NCBI GenBank assembly: GCA_016703605.1
Contig: JADJBU010000008.1
Coordinates: forward strand, 91,819-155,818
Direction of reading: 5' to 3'
DNA length: 64,000 nucleotides
Origin: Candidatus Villigracilis adiacens
Lineage (GTDB): Bacteria; Chloroflexota; Anaerolineae; Anaerolineales; Villigracilaceae
The translations under genes were made by a program, and so were the position numbers. The notes under the pieces were generated by a model that had not been told where the DNA came from, did no database searches, and saw only the letters and a list, made by a program, of their open reading frames with translations. Below, one piece after another: positions 4,857 through 64,000 of the stretch (positions are counted from its first letter, which is position 1; each line of letters opens with the position of its first letter).

Positions 4857-4905
4857 CAACTTGTAACTTGTAACTTGTAACTCGTAACTCGTATCTCGTT
4901 ACTCG
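4857..4905. repeat. Heptamer tandem array (TAACTTG/TAACTCG) x7
   Basis: CAACTTG TAACTTG TAACTTG TAACTCG TAACTCG TATCTCG TTACTCG just downstream of the fabI stop. Confidence 0.85.
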
Positions 4906-12507: not shown

Positions 12508-12796
12508 GTACGACAAGGTTCACCTTGTCCTTCTGACGGCGCAAAGTGAACTTTGCGGTACGACAAGGTTCACCTTGTCCTTCTGACGGCGCAAAGTGAA
12601 CTTTGCGGTACGACAAGGTTCACCTTGTCCTTCTGACGGTGCAAAGTAAACTTTGCGGTACGACAAGGTTCACCTTTCGACGGGCAAAGTACTTCGGTAC
12701 GACAAGGTTCACCTTGTCCTTCTGACGGTGCAAAGTAAACTTTGCGGTACGACAAGGTTCACCTTGTCCTTCTGACGGCGCAAAGTAAACTTTGCG
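12508..12796. repeat. BIME-like tandem array of a 50-nt double-hairpin unit (5 full copies plus one 39-nt variant)
   Basis: Unit GTACGACAAGGTTCACCTTGTCCTTCTGACGG(C/T)GCAAAGT(G/A)AACTTTGCG at 12508, 12558, 12608, 12697 and 12747; shortened copy at 12658-12696. Confidence 0.9.
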
Positions 12797-12797
12797 G

Positions 12798-40766: not shown

Positions 40767-41537
40767 ATGACCAAAACAATCCTCATCACCGGCGCGGGCG
40801 GCGGCATTGGGCGCGCCTGCATAAGCCATTTCGCCAAACTCGGCTGGCGCGTCATCGGCGTGGACCGAAACGCCCTGAGTGAAGTCGAAGGAGGCGAAGA
40901 CTTTCCGGCGAATGGACGCTTCATCCAAGCCGATATTTCCCAGCCCGAATCGGTTGAGATGATCTTCCAGCAGGCAAGGGATTTCCACCCGACGCTCGAC
41001 GCGCTGGTCAACAATGCCGCCGTGCAGGTCGCCAAACCGCTCGTGGAAACCACCGTCGAGGAGTGGGACGCGGTCATGGCGTCCAATTTGCGGTCCGTGT
41101 TCTTATTCGTCAAACTCGCTCATCCGCTTCTTAAAGCGGCGGGAGGCGGCTCCATCGTCAACGTCTCCTCCGTCCATGCCATGCAGACTTCCGCCAACAT
41201 CGCCGCCTATGCCGCCTCCAAAGGCGGTCTGCTCGCGTTGACCCGCGCCCTGGCAATCGAATTCGCAGCGGATGACATCCGCGTCAACGCCATTTTGCCC
41301 GGCGCGGTGGATACGCCCATGCTGAGAGCCGGCCTTGGGCGCGGACACGCCGGCTCGGGCGATATGCAGGAACGGCTCGACAACCTTGCGCGAAGAACTG
41401 TAAACGGTCGTGTTGGCACGCCCGCCGAAATTGCCAATGCCATTTATTTTCTCGCCGACAGCGAACAATCCTCCTTCATGACCGGTCAGGCAATGATCGT
41501 GGATGGCGGCGCAACGGCGAGACTCAGTACGGAGTAA
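40767..41537 (+). CDS. Short-chain dehydrogenase/reductase (SDR)
   Basis: TGAGGGIG, LVNNAA, YAASK, IRVNAILPG. Confidence 0.92.
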   Translation: MTKTILITGAGGGIGRACISHFAKLGWRVIGVDRNALSEVEGGEDFPANGRFIQADISQPESVEMIFQQARDFHPTLDALVNNAAVQVAKPLVETTVEEWDAVMASNLRSVFLFVKLAHPLLKAAGGGSIVNVSSVHAMQTSANIAAYAASKGGLLALTRALAIEFAADDIRVNAILPGAVDTPMLRAGLGRGHAGSGDMQERLDNLARRTVNGRVGTPAEIANAIYFLADSEQSSFMTGQAMIVDGGATARLSTE

Positions 41538-59169: not shown

Positions 59170-60345
59170 TTACTCCCAAAACACATGCGGAATATTATCC
59201 ATCGGCAGGTCTTCGAGGGTGGCTTTGCGCAAGGACTCAAAGCGCGGTTTCATTTCGTTCATTGAGTCACCGCCGAGTTTTTCGAGGAGCGCATCTGCCA
59301 AAACGAAGGCGACCATTGCCTCAAGAATCGGCACCGCGCGCGGAACGGGGCAGAAGTCGGAACGTTCGTATTTGGTGGGGGCATTCTCGCCAGAAGCAAG
59401 GTCAACGGTTTGTTGTGGGACGAGGGTTGTAGCAATCGGTTTCATCGCAGCGCGGATGATGATGGGCTGTCCGTTGCTTACTCCGCCTTCGGTGCCGCCG
59501 GCTCTGTTGGTTGAACGTTGAAGGTCGAAGGTTGAAGGTTGAAGGTTGATTGGGTCATGCGCTTTAGTTCCTAATCGTTTTGCATTTTCAAATGCGTCGC
59601 CGACTTCGACACCTTTGATCGCTTGAACGGACATGATGGCATGAGCCAGTTTGGCTTCGAGGCGTTTGTCCCATTGCACGAAACTACCCAAGCCAACGGG
59701 TAGATTGAGCGCAACGATTTCAAGGACGCCGCCGAGGGTATTTTTGCTGTGGATGGTCTTTTCGATTTCGGCGCGCATCTTTTCAGCGGAGGATTCGATT
59801 GGGCAACGGATATCCGATTCTTCGGCGCGAGTGAAGCGTTCTTCATAGGGCAAATCGCCAAAATCGGTTTGCACTTCGCCAATTGACGAAACGTATCCGC
59901 CAACGATGATGCCGAACTGGGCAAGGAAATGTTTACACACAGCTCCAGCCGCAACGCGCATGGTGGTCTCACGAGCGGAGGCGCGCTCCAATGCAGGGCG
60001 CAAATCTTTATAGCCATACTTGACTGCGCCGGTTAAGTCCGCGTGACCTGGGCGGGGAGCGGTCATCGGCTCGATGGCTTTGCCCTTCCATTTGACATGG
60101 TCATCGTTTTGCACGAGCAAAGCAATCGGCGCGCCGGTGGTTTCGCCGCCCATCACGCCGCCGAGAATTTGCACCGTGTCTTTCTCGATCTTCATGCGCC
60201 CGCCGGAGCCGTATCCCTGCTGGCGGCGGGTGAGTTCTTTGTTGATAATGTCTGGCGAGAGGGGAAGCCCGGCGGGGATGCCATCGAGAATGGTGGTGAG
60301 TGATGGTCCGTGGGATTCACCGGCGGTGAGAAAGCGTAAGGGCAT
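59170..60345 (-). CDS. aroC: Chorismate synthase
   Basis: LRFLTAGESHG, PRPGHAD, ERASARET, NRAGGTEGG, KPIAT, RSD; contains an in-frame heptamer tract at 59509-59550. Confidence 0.96.
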   Translation of the reverse strand: MPLRFLTAGESHGPSLTTILDGIPAGLPLSPDIINKELTRRQQGYGSGGRMKIEKDTVQILGGVMGGETTGAPIALLVQNDDHVKWKGKAIEPMTAPRPGHADLTGAVKYGYKDLRPALERASARETTMRVAAGAVCKHFLAQFGIIVGGYVSSIGEVQTDFGDLPYEERFTRAEESDIRCPIESSAEKMRAEIEKTIHSKNTLGGVLEIVALNLPVGLGSFVQWDKRLEAKLAHAIMSVQAIKGVEVGDAFENAKRLGTKAHDPINLQPSTFDLQRSTNRAGGTEGGVSNGQPIIIRAAMKPIATTLVPQQTVDLASGENAPTKYERSDFCPVPRAVPILEAMVAFVLADALLEKLGGDSMNEMKPRFESLRKATLEDLPMDNIPHVFWE

Positions 60346-60446: not shown

Positions 60447-61271
60447 TTATGATTCGATAGCTTGATAAAGAATGTCGCGCGGCGGGTTGTGTCCTGTCCA
60501 TTTTTCGAAGGCGAGGGCGGCTTGTTCGATGAGCATGCCCAAGCCGGTGGAGGCGTTCAGTCCCTGGGCGCGGGCGTCGCGGACGAGTTTGGTCTCACGT
60601 GGGTTATACACTAAATCATAAACGAATGTGCGTTTCGATAAAACCGTATTTTCAGGCAGGGGTGAGGTTTCGATGTTGGGTGTCATGCCGAGAGGAGTGG
60701 TGTTGACGAGTAAGTGGAAAGTTAAAAGTGGAAAGTCGGCGAGGTTGGTAATTGGTAATTGGTAATTGGTAAATGAGTCTGCGAGTTTTTGCGCTTGTTC
60801 AATTCGACGGGCCGCAATTGTGACGTTCCAGCCATCGTTAAGCAAAGCATAAACAACGGCTCTGGCAGAACCTCCCGCACCGAGTACCAACGCAGAATGC
60901 GGAATGATGAATGATGAATTTGAAACCCTCTTCAAATCGGAAAGGAAACCTGGCGCGTCGGTATTGTCTCCGATGAGTTTGTCGTCTCGCATATAAATGG
61001 TATTGACTGCGCCAATGGATTTTGCTGTTTGCGTGAGTTCATCCATGAACCCGATCACATTTTGTTTATGCGGAATGGTGACATTGAGTCCGTGGATTTC
61101 GCCTGCACGGACACGGGTTAGGAGATTAAAAAGTTCTTGCTTATCATCCGGGTGAATGGGGAATAGAGAATAGTTACCTTGCAAGTTAAACGCACTCAAA
61201 GCAGCCGTATGAATCTTTGGCGAAAGTGAGTGTCCTAAAGGGTAACCGATCAAACCGAGTTGATAATTCAT
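60447..61271 (-). CDS. aroE: Shikimate dehydrogenase
   Basis: GYPLGHSLSP, NVTIPHK, GAVNT, NTD, LGAGGSAR, DLVYNP, GMLIEQA; two in-frame heptamer tracts. Confidence 0.95.
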   Translation of the reverse strand: MNYQLGLIGYPLGHSLSPKIHTAALSAFNLQGNYSLFPIHPDDKQELFNLLTRVRAGEIHGLNVTIPHKQNVIGFMDELTQTAKSIGAVNTIYMRDDKLIGDNTDAPGFLSDLKRVSNSSFIIPHSALVLGAGGSARAVVYALLNDGWNVTIAARRIEQAQKLADSFTNYQLPITNLADFPLLTFHLLVNTTPLGMTPNIETSPLPENTVLSKRTFVYDLVYNPRETKLVRDARAQGLNASTGLGMLIEQAALAFEKWTGHNPPRDILYQAIES

Positions 61272-61281
61272 CTTTACCTGT

Positions 61282-62637
61282 TTACTTGTTTCCTTGTGTA
61301 CGTAATTTCTCAAGGACTTCAAAGTAGTTTGGGAAAGTCTTGGAAACACAGGAGGGATTTTCGATGGTGACGCCGTCAACGCGCAAGCCGATGAGGGAGA
61401 ATGCCATTGCCATGCGGTGGTCGTTGTAGGTTTGGATGGTTGCAGGTTTGAAGGTTGAAAGTTGAAGGTTGAAGGTTGGGTGGATGGTCATGCCGTCTGC
61501 GTGTTCTTCGACTTGCACACCTAAACGGGCGAGTTCGGCGCAGGTTGCGTGGACACGGTCTGTTTCCTTCACACGGGCGGAAGCAATGCCGCGAATTCGT
61601 GTTGGTGACGAAGCGAAGGGAGCGACGGCGGCGAGGGTTTGGGCTGTGTCTGGGATGTCGCGCATGTCTACGTCTACGCCGTGCAAGAGCGAGTGACCAG
61701 TGACCAGTAAACAGTTATCAGTTTCTTGTACAGTACAGCCCATTTGTTGAAGGACATCAAGAAAGGCGATGTCGCCTTGAACAGACTTGCGCGAGATGTT
61801 CTCTACTTTGACAGTCCCACCGCAGATGGCAGGGGCAGCGAAGAAGTAGGAGGCGGCGGAGGCGTCACTTTCAAGAGGATACGAGTTACGAGTTACAGAT
61901 TGCGTAACTTGTAACTCGTAACTCGCGGGCGGCACACGAAAAAAATCATAACCACGCCGTTCCACTTCCACGCCAAAGTCTTGCATGATGGAGAGAGTCA
62001 TATCCACGTAGGGTTTAGAGTTGAGGTCGGTGGTGAGCTTCACTTCAACGGGAGTTTGAGCGTACGGGGCAACCATCAATAAAGCCGATAAGAATTGAGA
62101 GGAAATATCTCCCGCAATCGTTGTCCTTCCGCCCTTCAAGCCCGATGCCGTAATTTTTACTGGCGGGCAAATCTGCCTTCCGCCTTCCGCTTTCTGCATT
62201 GGCTGAATATCACACCCCAATTGTGCCAATGCCTCCACCAAATCCCCGATCGGACGTTCGCGCATTCTAGGTTCGCCATCCAGAATATATTCGCCGTTTC
62301 CAAGAGTCAGAAAGGCGGAAAGGAATCTGGCGGCAGTGCCTGCGTTGCCAATGAAGAGTTCCGCTTTCTTTGCAGGAATTTTCCCGCCCAGCCCGGTAAC
62401 CGTCATGGAGAAATTTGCTTCATCCAGTTGAACGTCGAAGCCGAGAGTTTGCAGGGCTTTGGCGAAGTAGCGCGAGTCGTCGGAGAAGAGGGCGTTGGTG
62501 AGATGAGTTGTCCCGTTTGCAAGGGCGGCAATGAGCAAGGCGCGGTTGGTGAGGGATTTCGAACCGGGCACGCGGACGGTGGCGTTGAGGGGGTGGTGGA
62601 TGGGGGGGATGCGGAGGGAAGGGGGGAGAGTGGGCAT
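61282..62637 (-). CDS. aroA: 3-phosphoshikimate 1-carboxyvinyltransferase (EPSP synthase)
   Basis: PGSKSLTNR, GNAGTAARF, SSQFLSALL, KETDR, DHRMAM, KTFP; three in-frame heptamer tracts. Confidence 0.96.
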   Translation of the reverse strand: MPTLPPSLRIPPIHHPLNATVRVPGSKSLTNRALLIAALANGTTHLTNALFSDDSRYFAKALQTLGFDVQLDEANFSMTVTGLGGKIPAKKAELFIGNAGTAARFLSAFLTLGNGEYILDGEPRMRERPIGDLVEALAQLGCDIQPMQKAEGGRQICPPVKITASGLKGGRTTIAGDISSQFLSALLMVAPYAQTPVEVKLTTDLNSKPYVDMTLSIMQDFGVEVERRGYDFFRVPPASYELQVTQSVTRNSYPLESDASAASYFFAAPAICGGTVKVENISRKSVQGDIAFLDVLQQMGCTVQETDNCLLVTGHSLLHGVDVDMRDIPDTAQTLAAVAPFASSPTRIRGIASARVKETDRVHATCAELARLGVQVEEHADGMTIHPTFNLQLSTFKPATIQTYNDHRMAMAFSLIGLRVDGVTIENPSCVSKTFPNYFEVLEKLRTQGNK

Positions 62638-62714
62638 GGTGGGGAGTGGAAAGTGGGGAGTGGAAAGTGAATAGTGAATAGTGAATAGTGAATAGTGATC
62701 AGTGAACAGTGAGA
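62638..62714. repeat. Heptamer array x11 (RGT-N4) between tyrA and aroA
   Basis: GGTGGGG AGTGGAA AGTGGGG AGTGGAA (AGTGAAT)4 AGTGATC AGTGAAC AGTGAGA; contains the tyrA stop codon. Confidence 0.9.
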
Positions 62715-63556
62715 GAGTGGTAGGCGGATTGTGATTCGTTGAGGAGCGATTCAAGTTTGGTGAAATCTTCTGAAGATAACGCAGACTCGATCTCTGCCAG
62801 TTGACTTTGCATTCCACGCAGAGCATTTAATACATTTTCGCGGTTGGATTGTAAGACGCCCAACATCATGGAAGATGATGTGCCTGCGAGTCTACTCGTG
62901 GACTTGAAGCCGGGTCCAACAAAAGGGGCGACGTCTTCGGGTGTAGTGCGTGCCAGTGCAGACGAGATCAGAAATGGCAGATGGCTTGTGGAAGCAAGGA
63001 TGCGGTCATGGTCTACGGCATCCAGCGTTTTGCCTTTGGCACCGAGGGCTTCGATGATCTGATATGCGGCAGAGATGGCGCGAGGCGATGTGCGATCCAG
63101 CGGAGTCAACAAAAAAGGCGCAGCGTAGTAAAGCGTTCTCTCTGCATTCGCCAGCGAAAGCTTTTCTTTGCCGCAAATGGGATGCCCGCCGATGGGGTCG
63201 AAGCGTTCAGGCAATTTTGCCATCGCTTCGACGACCAATCGTTTTGTGGAGCCCAAGTCCATGACGATGCAGGGATGGGGAATGGTAATTGGTAATTGGT
63301 CAATGAGTGTGATGATTGACTGGACTGGCGCTGACAGAATCACAACATCAACATCGGCGGGGAGGGTGGCAGGGTCGCTGTCGGCGTAGTCCACGATATG
63401 TTGGGACAGAGCAAGCTCGAGCGTGGCAGGATGCGGGTCAATTCCATAAAGAGCCGCACATTTGCCGCGCAGTCCCAATGCCAACGAGCCGCCCATCAAG
63501 CCCAATCCGATGATGGCGATTTTTGATTCGGAGAGTGTAAAGTTTATGTCTTCCAT
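62699..63556 (-). CDS. tyrA: Prephenate dehydrogenase
   Basis: [30 protein letters not shown]; start at 63556. Confidence 0.92.
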
Positions 63557-64000
63557 TGGGTAATTGGTAATTGGTAATTGGAGATTACCAATCTCCTCTC
63601 CACCGCCTCCGCCACCGCTTTGACCTGCTTCACCATTTTGGCAAAGGCTTCGGGTGTGAGCGACTGCTTGCCATCGGAAATGGCGTGTGGCGGGTCTTGA
63701 TGGACTTCGACGATGAGACCGTCGGCGCCAGCGGCGATGCTTGCTTTGGCAATGGATTGCACATACGCCGAGTCGCCGGTGGAGTGGGATGGGTCCATGA
63801 CAACTGGGAGATGCGTGAGTTTCTTGAGCACGGGCACGGCGTTGATGTCGGTGGTGTTGCGCGTGGCGGTTTCGAATGTGCGGATGCCGCGCTCGCAAAG
63901 AATGACGCGATGATTGCCGCCGTTGAGAATGTATTCGCTCGCCATGAGCATTTCTTCGATGGTGGCAGACATGCCGCGCTTGAACAAGACGGGCGTGCGG
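63544..64000 (-). CDS. aroF: DAHP synthase (type I-beta), C-terminal part; the gene starts beyond the window
   Basis: [33 protein letters not shown]; C-terminus ([13 protein letters not shown]) is encoded by a GGTAATT heptamer tract. Confidence 0.9.

Follow-up and report, generated by a model that had tools for sequence, protein, structure and literature searches.

A translated heptamer hairpin in a tolerant loop of AroA from Candidatus Villigracilis adiacens

The hairpin in the aroA reading frame

A hairpin made of seven-nucleotide (heptamer) repeat units lies inside aroA, the EPSP synthase gene, in a 64,000-nt stretch of DNA from the uncultured Chloroflexota bacterium Candidatus Villigracilis adiacens (Anaerolineales; GenBank assembly GCA_016703605.1, contig JADJBU010000008.1, positions 91,819 to 155,818 of the forward strand). 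This whole stretch is referred to below as the window, and its features are listed in Table 1. The aroA product matches solved EPSP synthases with E = 1e-111 (phmmer). The two arms of the hairpin, CGAGTTACGAGTTACA (61882-61897) and TGTAACTCGTAACTCG (61910-61925) as read on the forward strand, are reverse-complementary at 16/16 positions, with 12 nt between them. The perfect 16-bp stem with a 12-nt loop that the original prediction had placed in aroA is therefore borne out, both by the sequence and by a repeat search. The same search also gives an alternative register, in which the arms are 17 nt long and 94% complementary and the loop is 7 nt. The tract has a period of 7, and Tandem Repeats Finder (TRF) reports it as TACGAGT x2.4 at 61880-61896 and CGTAACT x3.3 at 61903-61925.

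On the coding strand the sequence reads GCG AGT TAC GAG TTA CAA GTT ACG CAA TCT GTA ACT CGT AAC TCG TAT, i.e., three direct AGTTACR units, the centre CAATC(T), two inverted GTAACTC units and the conserved tyrosine codon TAT. The hairpin is in frame and encodes SYELQVTQSVTRNSY directly ahead of the catalytic ESDAS motif (ESDASAASYF), a position that had been predicted and that the translation of the open reading frame (ORF) confirms. Only one of the six reading frames through the hairpin is open, the aroA frame, while the other five meet stops. A third inverted unit would bring an in-frame TAA to the position of the conserved TAT, so the inverted arm is held to two units.

Table 1. Features of the window that concern the aroA hairpin and its repeat family
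Feature	Coordinates	Strand	Basis or remark
aroA (EPSP synthase) coding sequence, 451 aa	61282..62637	-	ORF translation, phmmer; hairpin = residues 239-253
3' mRNA arm, TGTAACTCGTAACTCG on the coding strand, codons S-V-T-R-N-S, two inverted units, up to TAT	61882..61897	-	
Loop, 12 nt, coding strand AGTTACGCAATC: third direct unit and centre CAATC	61898..61909	-	
5' mRNA arm, CGAGTTACGAGTTACA on the coding strand, codons A-S-Y-E-L-Q, direct AGTTACR units	61910..61925	-	
21-nt (7-codon) surplus over short-loop alleles, coding strand CAATCTGTAACTCGTAACTCG	61882..61902	-	codon-wise comparison with L014 and L039
Patch of ~210 nt around the loop, closest relative G004 unlike the rest of the gene: recombination tract or old allele	61825..62034	-	blastn
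Second in-frame aroA heptamer tract, GGTTGAA x5.7, FNLQLSTF, 5 aa longer than all orthologs	61438..61478	-	TRF
Third heptamer-like aroA tract, GCCTTCC x2.9	62175..62194	-	TRF
Intergenic array of the hairpin's unit family, GTAACTY x6.9, one orientation	4858..4905	+	TRF, pattern search

The RNA context of 84 nt folds with -28.2 kcal/mol, against -15.9 +/- 2.8 kcal/mol for shuffled sequences (z = -4.4), and 0/200 shuffles are as good. The pattern GTAACTNGTAACT has 7 matches in the window, where 0.05 are expected. Chance or an artefact of assembly would be a scarcely credible explanation. Only ~0.04 perfect 16-bp stems with a loop of at most 40 nt are estimated for a random sequence of 4.4 Mb, and all that speaks for an artefact is the general risk of fold-back chimeras in assemblies. 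An artefact is unlikely, and in fact already refuted, because homologous versions of the hairpin are present in 13 independent assemblies from different projects. The heptamer hairpin in aroA is genuine, and it is translated as part of a tolerant loop.

In the AlphaFold2 model of AroA, with a mean predicted local distance difference test (pLDDT) of 94.1, residues 236-251 are coil, and the block 241-250, with a pLDDT of 77, is the second-weakest internal block. Compared with E. coli-type enzymes, AroA has 6 additional residues in this loop, which runs from a beta-strand to the catalytic E-x-D-A-S motif. Judged from the model, the protein most likely tolerates the hairpin as a passenger, and we infer that it is neutral at this level.

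Loop alleles across the genus

In 44 congeneric or related aroA genes, the loop ahead of ESDASAAS consists of heptamer-like DNA, and the unit differs by lineage. It is AATTACC at loci L004, L005 and L020 (peptide NYQLPITNY), AATCTCT at L006, L012 and L013, AATTACG at L014 and L039, CTTTCCT at L003, L008 and L011 (peptide SSFFPLSS) and CCACTTT at L002. In the most distant relatives and in E. coli the loop is non-repetitive and of about the same length.

Allele lengths were surveyed in the 120 closest AroA protein clusters, using a segment that spans the loop. The short forms of 32 and 33 aa account for 51 clusters each. A segment of 39 aa is found in 13 clusters, 12 of which, including this genome, are of the hairpin type Y[EK]L[QR]xTQxV[TI]RNSY, the other one (P0114) being a direct-repeat expansion. 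The longer forms have 42 aa with an AIPKRSGAD insert (3 clusters), 43 aa with a second array of AACCTTC (1 cluster) and 47 aa, where a hairpin type (P0067) carries a nested 24-nt insert (1 cluster). The hairpin form is present in 13/120 of the closest clusters and exceeds the common forms by 21 nt (7 aa). At the DNA level, the loop segment in a first set of 20 congeneric loci measures 54 nt in 17, 57 nt in 3 and 75 nt in 2; one related locus has 87 nt, and one allele is longer by 24 nt, the nested insert. All differences in loop length between lineages preserve the frame, and a change of one unit would break an essential gene. The insert of the 42-aa form, nine residues in the middle of the heptamer-coded loop, is found in P0031, P0033 and P0117 (as AIPKRSEVD in P0033) and may be another nested mini-element.

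The allele of this genome reads GTG CCG CCC GCG AGT TAC GAG TTA CAA GTT ACG [CAA TCT GTA ACT CGT AAC TCG] TAT, where the brackets enclose the surplus, and the short allele of L039 reads GTC CCA ATT ACG AAT TAC GAA TCA CAA ATT ACG TAC. When compared as a reverse complement with the upstream units, the 21-nt surplus matches at 16/16 positions and then at 2/5. The surplus is thus the reverse complement of immediately adjacent sequence, which is the mark of a template switch, and its placement within the repeat is ambiguous. Comparison with the short alleles reveals no target duplication or direct repeat flanking the 44 nt and no foreign sequence inside. Short alleles with similar flanks that encode VTSYQLPVTSY, the expected product of a direct AGTTACC array, exist among the protein clusters. 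With segment lengths that vary among the 120 clusters and units that vary among the 44 genes, the aroA loop is a hot spot of repeat turnover, where the hairpin represents one allele class out of several.

The original prediction allowed for a complete element landing in aroA, and this part of it is not supported. There is neither a target duplication nor a foreign core, the surplus copies its neighbouring units in reverse complement, almost all congeners have heptamer-coded DNA at the site already, the allele is old and occurs in 13/120 clusters, and a genome-wide pattern search found no second copy of the aroA hairpin in this genome. The proposed check of ortholog loops gave a divided answer. 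Close orthologs are indeed shorter and lack the palindrome, yet none of them holds an empty site, as the position is occupied by heptamer tracts of other units instead.

Independent assemblies supplied the DNA of twelve further hairpin alleles. The homologous version in genome G004 (locus L009) measures 75 nt, and its stem pairs at 13/16 positions. The hairpin alleles share their flanks and the centre ACGCAATC. The hairpin is an old allele class and not a fresh insertion.

The patch around the loop shows 84% identity to G004, the next best match having 74%, whereas G004 ranks only 10th to 30th in the gene halves, the flanks and every other segment (blastn). Sliding-window and protein identity profiles agree with this mosaic. 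The closest proteins overall, P0003 (89%) and P0005 (87%), are without the hairpin and differ from this AroA almost only in the loop patches, and ~140 C-terminal residues of P0005 are identical to it. Breakpoints were mapped against both at the protein level; 18-20 of 20 residues per window are identical outside the patch, compared with 3-11 of 20 inside. Because these closest proteins lack the hairpin and differ mainly in the patch, a stretch of ~200 nt appears to move between lineages by homologous recombination, as far as the mosaic pattern tells.

On a tree built without the loop, the 13 carriers require 10 changes, compared with a mean of 12.6 for shuffled labels, and the other loop allele classes are equally scattered. 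In the DNA tree, G004 groups with G013 (support 98/95), and this genome (G000) groups with G007, G012 and HK-STAS-CHLO-4. Trees of a recombining gene are weak evidence, and it is the segment-wise identity comparisons, not the gene tree, that carry the mosaic argument. We would read the distribution as patch exchange or long-standing polymorphism in preference to a repeated origin of the hairpin.

The hairpin is not the only repeat in this region. The GGTTGAA unit of the C-terminal aroA tract (61438-61478) is also found in aroC, as a direct array x6 at 59509-59549. The GCCTTCC tract sits in a surface loop of AroA (residues ~146-157, window 62167-62202), the length of which varies by up to ~20 aa among congeners, and several of the inserts in this loop look repeat-coded, e.g. 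TDNWSLVTDYS and DDRPQTTSSALNGQQSE. Further heptamer arrays, at 62639-62712, 63283-63300, 63559-63581 and 60712-60772, lie at the tyrA-aroA and aroF-tyrA junctions and inside aroE and tyrA. The arrays of the aroE/tyrA region give rise to NYQLPIT-type peptides and to long spurious N-terminal ORF extensions.

Heptamer repeats in the genome and the origin of the hairpin

The assembly (4.44 Mb, 55% G+C) contains 815 arrays of period 7 in 190 unit families, compared with 159 arrays of period 6 and 258 of period 8; the commonest unit, AATTACC, forms 86 arrays. Adjacent arrays less than 100 nt apart are inverted copies of one unit in 34% of the cases, against 4.4% for random pairs, and arrays 1-3 kb apart share a unit 2.3x more often than random pairs. 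A hairpin locus was defined as a heptamer array with an inverted copy within 40 nt and a perfect stem of at least 12 bp, and 67 such loci are found. The architecture claimed for aroA, an array plus an inverted array without cargo, therefore holds, as no ORF lies between the arms and the genome contains 67 hairpins of this kind. Among the 67 there are two duplicate pairs near contig ends, and no foreign centre is dispersed among them, only unit-derived centres (flips at an AATT core).

The ORF context of the repeats was taken from stop-to-stop spans, with no gene caller. At least 100 codons of ORF on both sides surround 27% of the arrays and 4/67 of the hairpins, compared with 46% of random sites. 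The four hairpins deep in genes are those of aroA, a molybdopterin oxidoreductase, a GMC oxidoreductase and a B12-binding radical-SAM protein, all of them multi-domain proteins that Pfam shows to be continuous; the last three lie outside the window, at C13:61396-61450, C5:95826-95874 and C26:363255-363317, respectively. The unit of the aroA hairpin occurs at about a dozen loci in the genome, the intergenic array at 4858-4905 among them. The unit shared with this array had been pointed out before and is confirmed, but with about a dozen such loci the array has no specific link to aroA.

We suggest that the hairpin is a translated heptamer allele class that arose as an inverted local copy in a pre-existing tract, was spread by recombination and is tolerated, and we consider this explanation fairly probable. 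The starting site would be a pre-existing AGTTACN/AATTACG tract in the disordered surface loop of AroA. There, an inverted copy of neighbouring units could have been made by a strand switch (fold-back) during copying, or copied in as a short patch from a similar array. The copy would be under two constraints: it must fall in the only stop-free frame, and the TAA limits the inverted arm to two units. The allele could then have spread between lineages as a ~200-nt patch through homologous recombination. It puts a predicted stem of about -26 kcal/mol on the aroA mRNA.

How the two arms have changed can be followed in 13 hairpin alleles of equal length, with a stem of 17 pairs. Stem cells are paired in 88.7%, compared with 17-37% in slid controls (partner displaced by 1-3 columns), and four pairs are changed on both sides across the alleles. 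L102 and L103 have AATTAC/GTAATT for AGTTAC/GTAACT, i.e., two G-C pairs became A-T pairs, and the arms of L108 are AGATAC/GTATCT, a T-A to A-T change. The covariation score is 0.122, against 0.078 when shuffled, with 1/500 shuffles as high. Synonymous-codon identity is 0.85 in each arm, compared with a gene mean of 0.55, and 8/411 six-codon windows are as high. The arms of the hairpin evolve in concert. This may result from arm-to-arm correction or from selection for pairing.

Under selection for pairing, the stem would be a nucleic-acid structure with a role of its own, either in the mRNA, as a hairpin controlling aroA expression, or in the DNA, as a cruciform that favours recombination at this site. 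The mRNA hairpin could act as a site for cleavage by RNase III or another double-strand-specific enzyme, as a ribosome pause between folding units or as the site of a heptamer-recognising protein. Such a role would agree with the compensatory changes in three lineages and the pairing well above the slid controls, with the synonymous conservation of both arms, which exceeds that of the immediate flanks as well as the gene-wide value, and with the stability of the stem. It could also draw on the patch being a recombination mosaic and on the S23p-flanking stems in 23S rRNA intervening sequences (IVS), which are RNase III substrates (PMC4990558). We nevertheless hold it to be quite improbable. About 89% of the closest AroA lineages do without the hairpin and have unrelated direct repeats in its place; an A-C mismatch is present mid-stem in 7/13 hairpin alleles, and the incomplete G004 stem has been mentioned above. 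Hairpins are ~8-fold depleted in genes, 16 bp is short for RNase III, and concerted evolution of repeats can mimic such constraint.

Relatives of the hairpin in other genes were sought by pattern searches in 95 genomes of the genus, with reversed patterns as a control. The centre ACG-CAAYM-CGT is common to related hairpins elsewhere in the genus. A loop of AroC in G054 (L133/L176), G085 (L136) and G076 (L188) contains a hairpin of the TACGCAATCC core, which encodes ELRNTQSVIRNS just before NRAGGTEGG. Hairpins with TACGCAATCC also occur in two zinc-finger proteins (putative hypF-like, by motif), in several other ORFs and, in G046, at an apparently intergenic site (-29 kcal/mol). The coding copies all read ...LRNTQSV[IMT]R[NK].... 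The genome with aroA allele L107 has the same unit family in its AroC loop, there in a single orientation. A loose pattern search matched mostly plain direct CGTAATN arrays. That such hairpins are tolerated in coding sequence, as had been proposed, is supported by the in-frame copies in aroC and the two zinc-finger proteins. The aroA hairpin belongs to a genus-wide class of heptamer hairpins, which is rare in genes yet recurrent there.

Several points weigh against the local origin and tolerated spread that we favour. The centre TACGCAATCC with heptamer arms is found at at least 10 unrelated loci (0 in the reversed control), and a 37-nt core, ACGAATTACGTAATACGCAATCCGTAATTCGTAATTC, is identical in aroA allele L103 and in aroC of G085; such shared cores point to copying between loci and not to a purely local origin. 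Copying between loci is also suggested by the GGTTGAA unit common to aroC and aroA in the window and by the unit sharing of arrays 1-3 kb apart. As for the pairing, the kinship of the 13 alleles inflates the shuffle test, and L102 and L103 are near kin and count as one event. A younger, recently exchanged patch could also give high synonymous conservation, good conservation between species is also apparent for direct arrays that belong to other allele classes, and repeat homogenisation can slow divergence without selection. As for the exchange, the approximately unbiased (AU) test gives p = 0.125 for a sister relationship of G000 and G004 outside the patch, which falls short of formal rejection.

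The shared cores also lend support to a small mobile palindromic element that inserts into heptamer tracts, which we think somewhat unlikely. It could resemble a miniature inverted-repeat transposable element (MITE), a Rickettsia palindromic element (RPE) or a repetitive extragenic palindrome (REP), or be a PF05635 cassette without cargo, and its copies inside genes would survive only in a single open frame. Besides the 37-nt core common to aroA of one lineage and aroC of another, this reading has for it the spread of the TACGCAATCC centre over aroC in three genomes, two zinc-finger genes, other ORFs and the intergenic G046 site, together with the peptide common to the coding copies. The arms, 16/16 complementary, would be terminal inverted repeats, and RPEs are a precedent for in-frame palindromic insertion (PMC10969869). 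Moreover, 8 of the 10 PF05635 (23S-IVS four-helix-bundle) genes of the genome are bracketed by inverted heptamer arrays, which confirms the cassette cited in the original prediction, and one relative has a different 24-nt element, CTGAGC-N-GTCGAAGG (~70 copies in this genome vs 2 in the control), nested inside its aroA hairpin.

A mobile element is, however, difficult to reconcile with a locus that has no target-site duplication and no clean empty site in orthologs, with arms that vary from locus to locus, with a single copy in this genome and with a surplus of exactly three units that match their neighbours. No heptamer array or hairpin lies within 600 nt of the six PF01797 (Y1-transposase) matches (0/6). 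Two degenerate inverted units, CGTAATA and CGCAATC, in which TAA has become CAA, would likewise account for the TACGCAATCC centre; the mobile-element reading is weakened because the centre can be read in this way, and open-frame selection would yield this change repeatedly. Since any in-frame copy needs the TAA to CAA change, the shared centre may reflect dispersal or constrained convergence. The "minimal element" proposed earlier is not a defined sequence either, because the arms of the PF05635 cassettes are locus-specific.

Other short repeats were also noted. A dispersed element of ~24 nt, (CTTGCC)CTGAGC-N3-5-GTCGAAGGG, has ~70 genome copies, vs 2 in a reversed-sequence control, and is often nested inside heptamer arrays; the window copy at 40872-40892 is GCCCTGAGTGAAGTCGAAGGA, and in one relative (locus L111) a 21-mer of the element sits within an arm of the aroA hairpin, where it encodes PALSEVEG. 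At C26:242977-243213, at least 5 palindromes of 14 bp, CAAACTTCAGTTTG / CAAACTGAAGTTTG, alternate with two spacer types. This run lies beside a PF01797 match (C26:243584-243898), resembles a cluster of REPs or bacterial interspersed mosaic elements (BIMEs) by a gene like that of a REP-associated tyrosine transposase (RAYT), and is unrelated to the heptamer hairpins. In the window, at 12508-12797, a tandem 50-nt unit is present in ~6 copies (90% match) with two palindromes per unit, ACAAGGTTCACCTTGT and GCGCAAAGTAAACTTTGCG.

It can also be speculated, though we find it rather unlikely, that heptamer arrays and hairpins together form an actively self-propagating, homology-guided repeat system, possibly tied to PF05635 genes, that is written into essential enzymes at tolerant loops (aroA, aroC, putative hypF-like genes and others). 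Complementarity of the arms would then be maintained through arm-to-arm correction or through selection for structured RNA, and recombination would carry whole loop alleles from species to species. The hairpin in aroA would be a live case of this process that can be dated, and not a passive microsatellite.

The aroA allele series and known repeat systems

Heptamer repeats are a long-noted and unexplained feature of several bacterial phyla. Here, the loop of one essential and well-understood enzyme offers a natural series of alleles, i.e., direct arrays of at least five unit types as well as hairpin, second-array and nested mini-element forms. The series shows that the repeats are translated and tolerated and that hairpin arms evolve in concert, and it suggests that the reshuffling of loop alleles between species far outpaces the divergence of the rest of the gene. 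The aroA case contributes this series of alleles, together with a recombination mosaic and with compensatory changes in the stem. The origin of the repeats, by local strand switching or by copying between loci, and a role of the stem at the RNA level become testable in a gene open to complementation in E. coli aroA mutants. For annotation, the repeats explain odd low-complexity inserts in proteins of this group, e.g. NYQLPIT, SSFFPLS and RNTQSVIRN.

Heptanucleotide tandem repeats (STRR) were reportedly described in cyanobacteria by Mazel et al. in 1990. The arrays studied here are like the bacterial heptanucleotide repeats in their head-to-tail 7-nt units, in the genome-wide excess of period 7, in arrays of 2 to 15 units with many unit families, and in their frequent position at gene junctions. 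They are depleted in ORFs, although a part of them still occurs there. "Long" simple sequence repeats with a 7-nt excess were studied by Mrazek and colleagues, as summarised in PMC4679880 and PMC4692102. The heptamer arrays of cyanobacteria, Beggiatoaceae and Bacteroidetes lie mostly between genes (PMC4679880, PMC4692102); TAACTGA repeats are found in Beggiatoaceae, Cyanobacteria and Bacteroidetes (PMC4679880), and MacGregor listed 10 arrays inside ORFs and one inverted repeat. In contrast, about a quarter of the arrays in this genome are deep in ORFs and translated, one and the same protein loop has different units in different species, and arrays are often paired with an inverted copy, forming hairpins (67 loci). 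The host also differs, as the Chloroflexota are outside the coverage of PMC4679880 and PMC4692102, and we found nothing specific in the literature on heptamer repeats in Chloroflexi/Anaerolineae or on heptamer hairpins in Chloroflexota genes.

RPEs are inserted in frame into unrelated metabolic genes (reviewed in PMC10969869). Like them, the aroA hairpin is a palindromic repeat translated in frame in a housekeeping enzyme at a fold-compatible position, and coding copies in different genes share a conserved, LRNTQSVIRN-like peptide. However, RPEs are ~150 bp long and form defined sequence families with many near-identical copies per genome, while the aroA hairpin has 44 nt, is made of locus-variable 7-nt units, is single-copy and sits at a site that already holds repeats.

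The Coxiella IVS with an S23p ORF has a 28-bp terminal stem that is cut by RNase III, and variable heptameric repeats upstream of the ORF (PMC4990558). As in the S23p/PF05635 cassettes, the arms of the aroA stem are inverted heptamer arrays. The aroA stem differs in that it encloses 12 nt and no ORF, and its mRNA has to remain whole. RAYT (Y1) transposases mobilise REP/BIME and REPIN elements (PMC3116915), which are likewise short, hairpin-forming, dispersed repeats found mostly between genes, whereas the heptamer hairpins have no conserved REP sequence. Nor do they flank any of the six Y1-transposase genes of this genome.

Quasipalindrome, or template-switch, mutations are said to have been described by Ripley and by Lovett and colleagues. 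The aroA hairpin resembles them as a short inverted copy of adjacent sequence with no target duplication, whose arms can later correct each other. Quasipalindrome mutations are single events in laboratory reporters, while the hairpin is a long-lived, recombining allele in a repeat tract. We class the aroA hairpin as a variant of STRR-like or RPE-like repeats.

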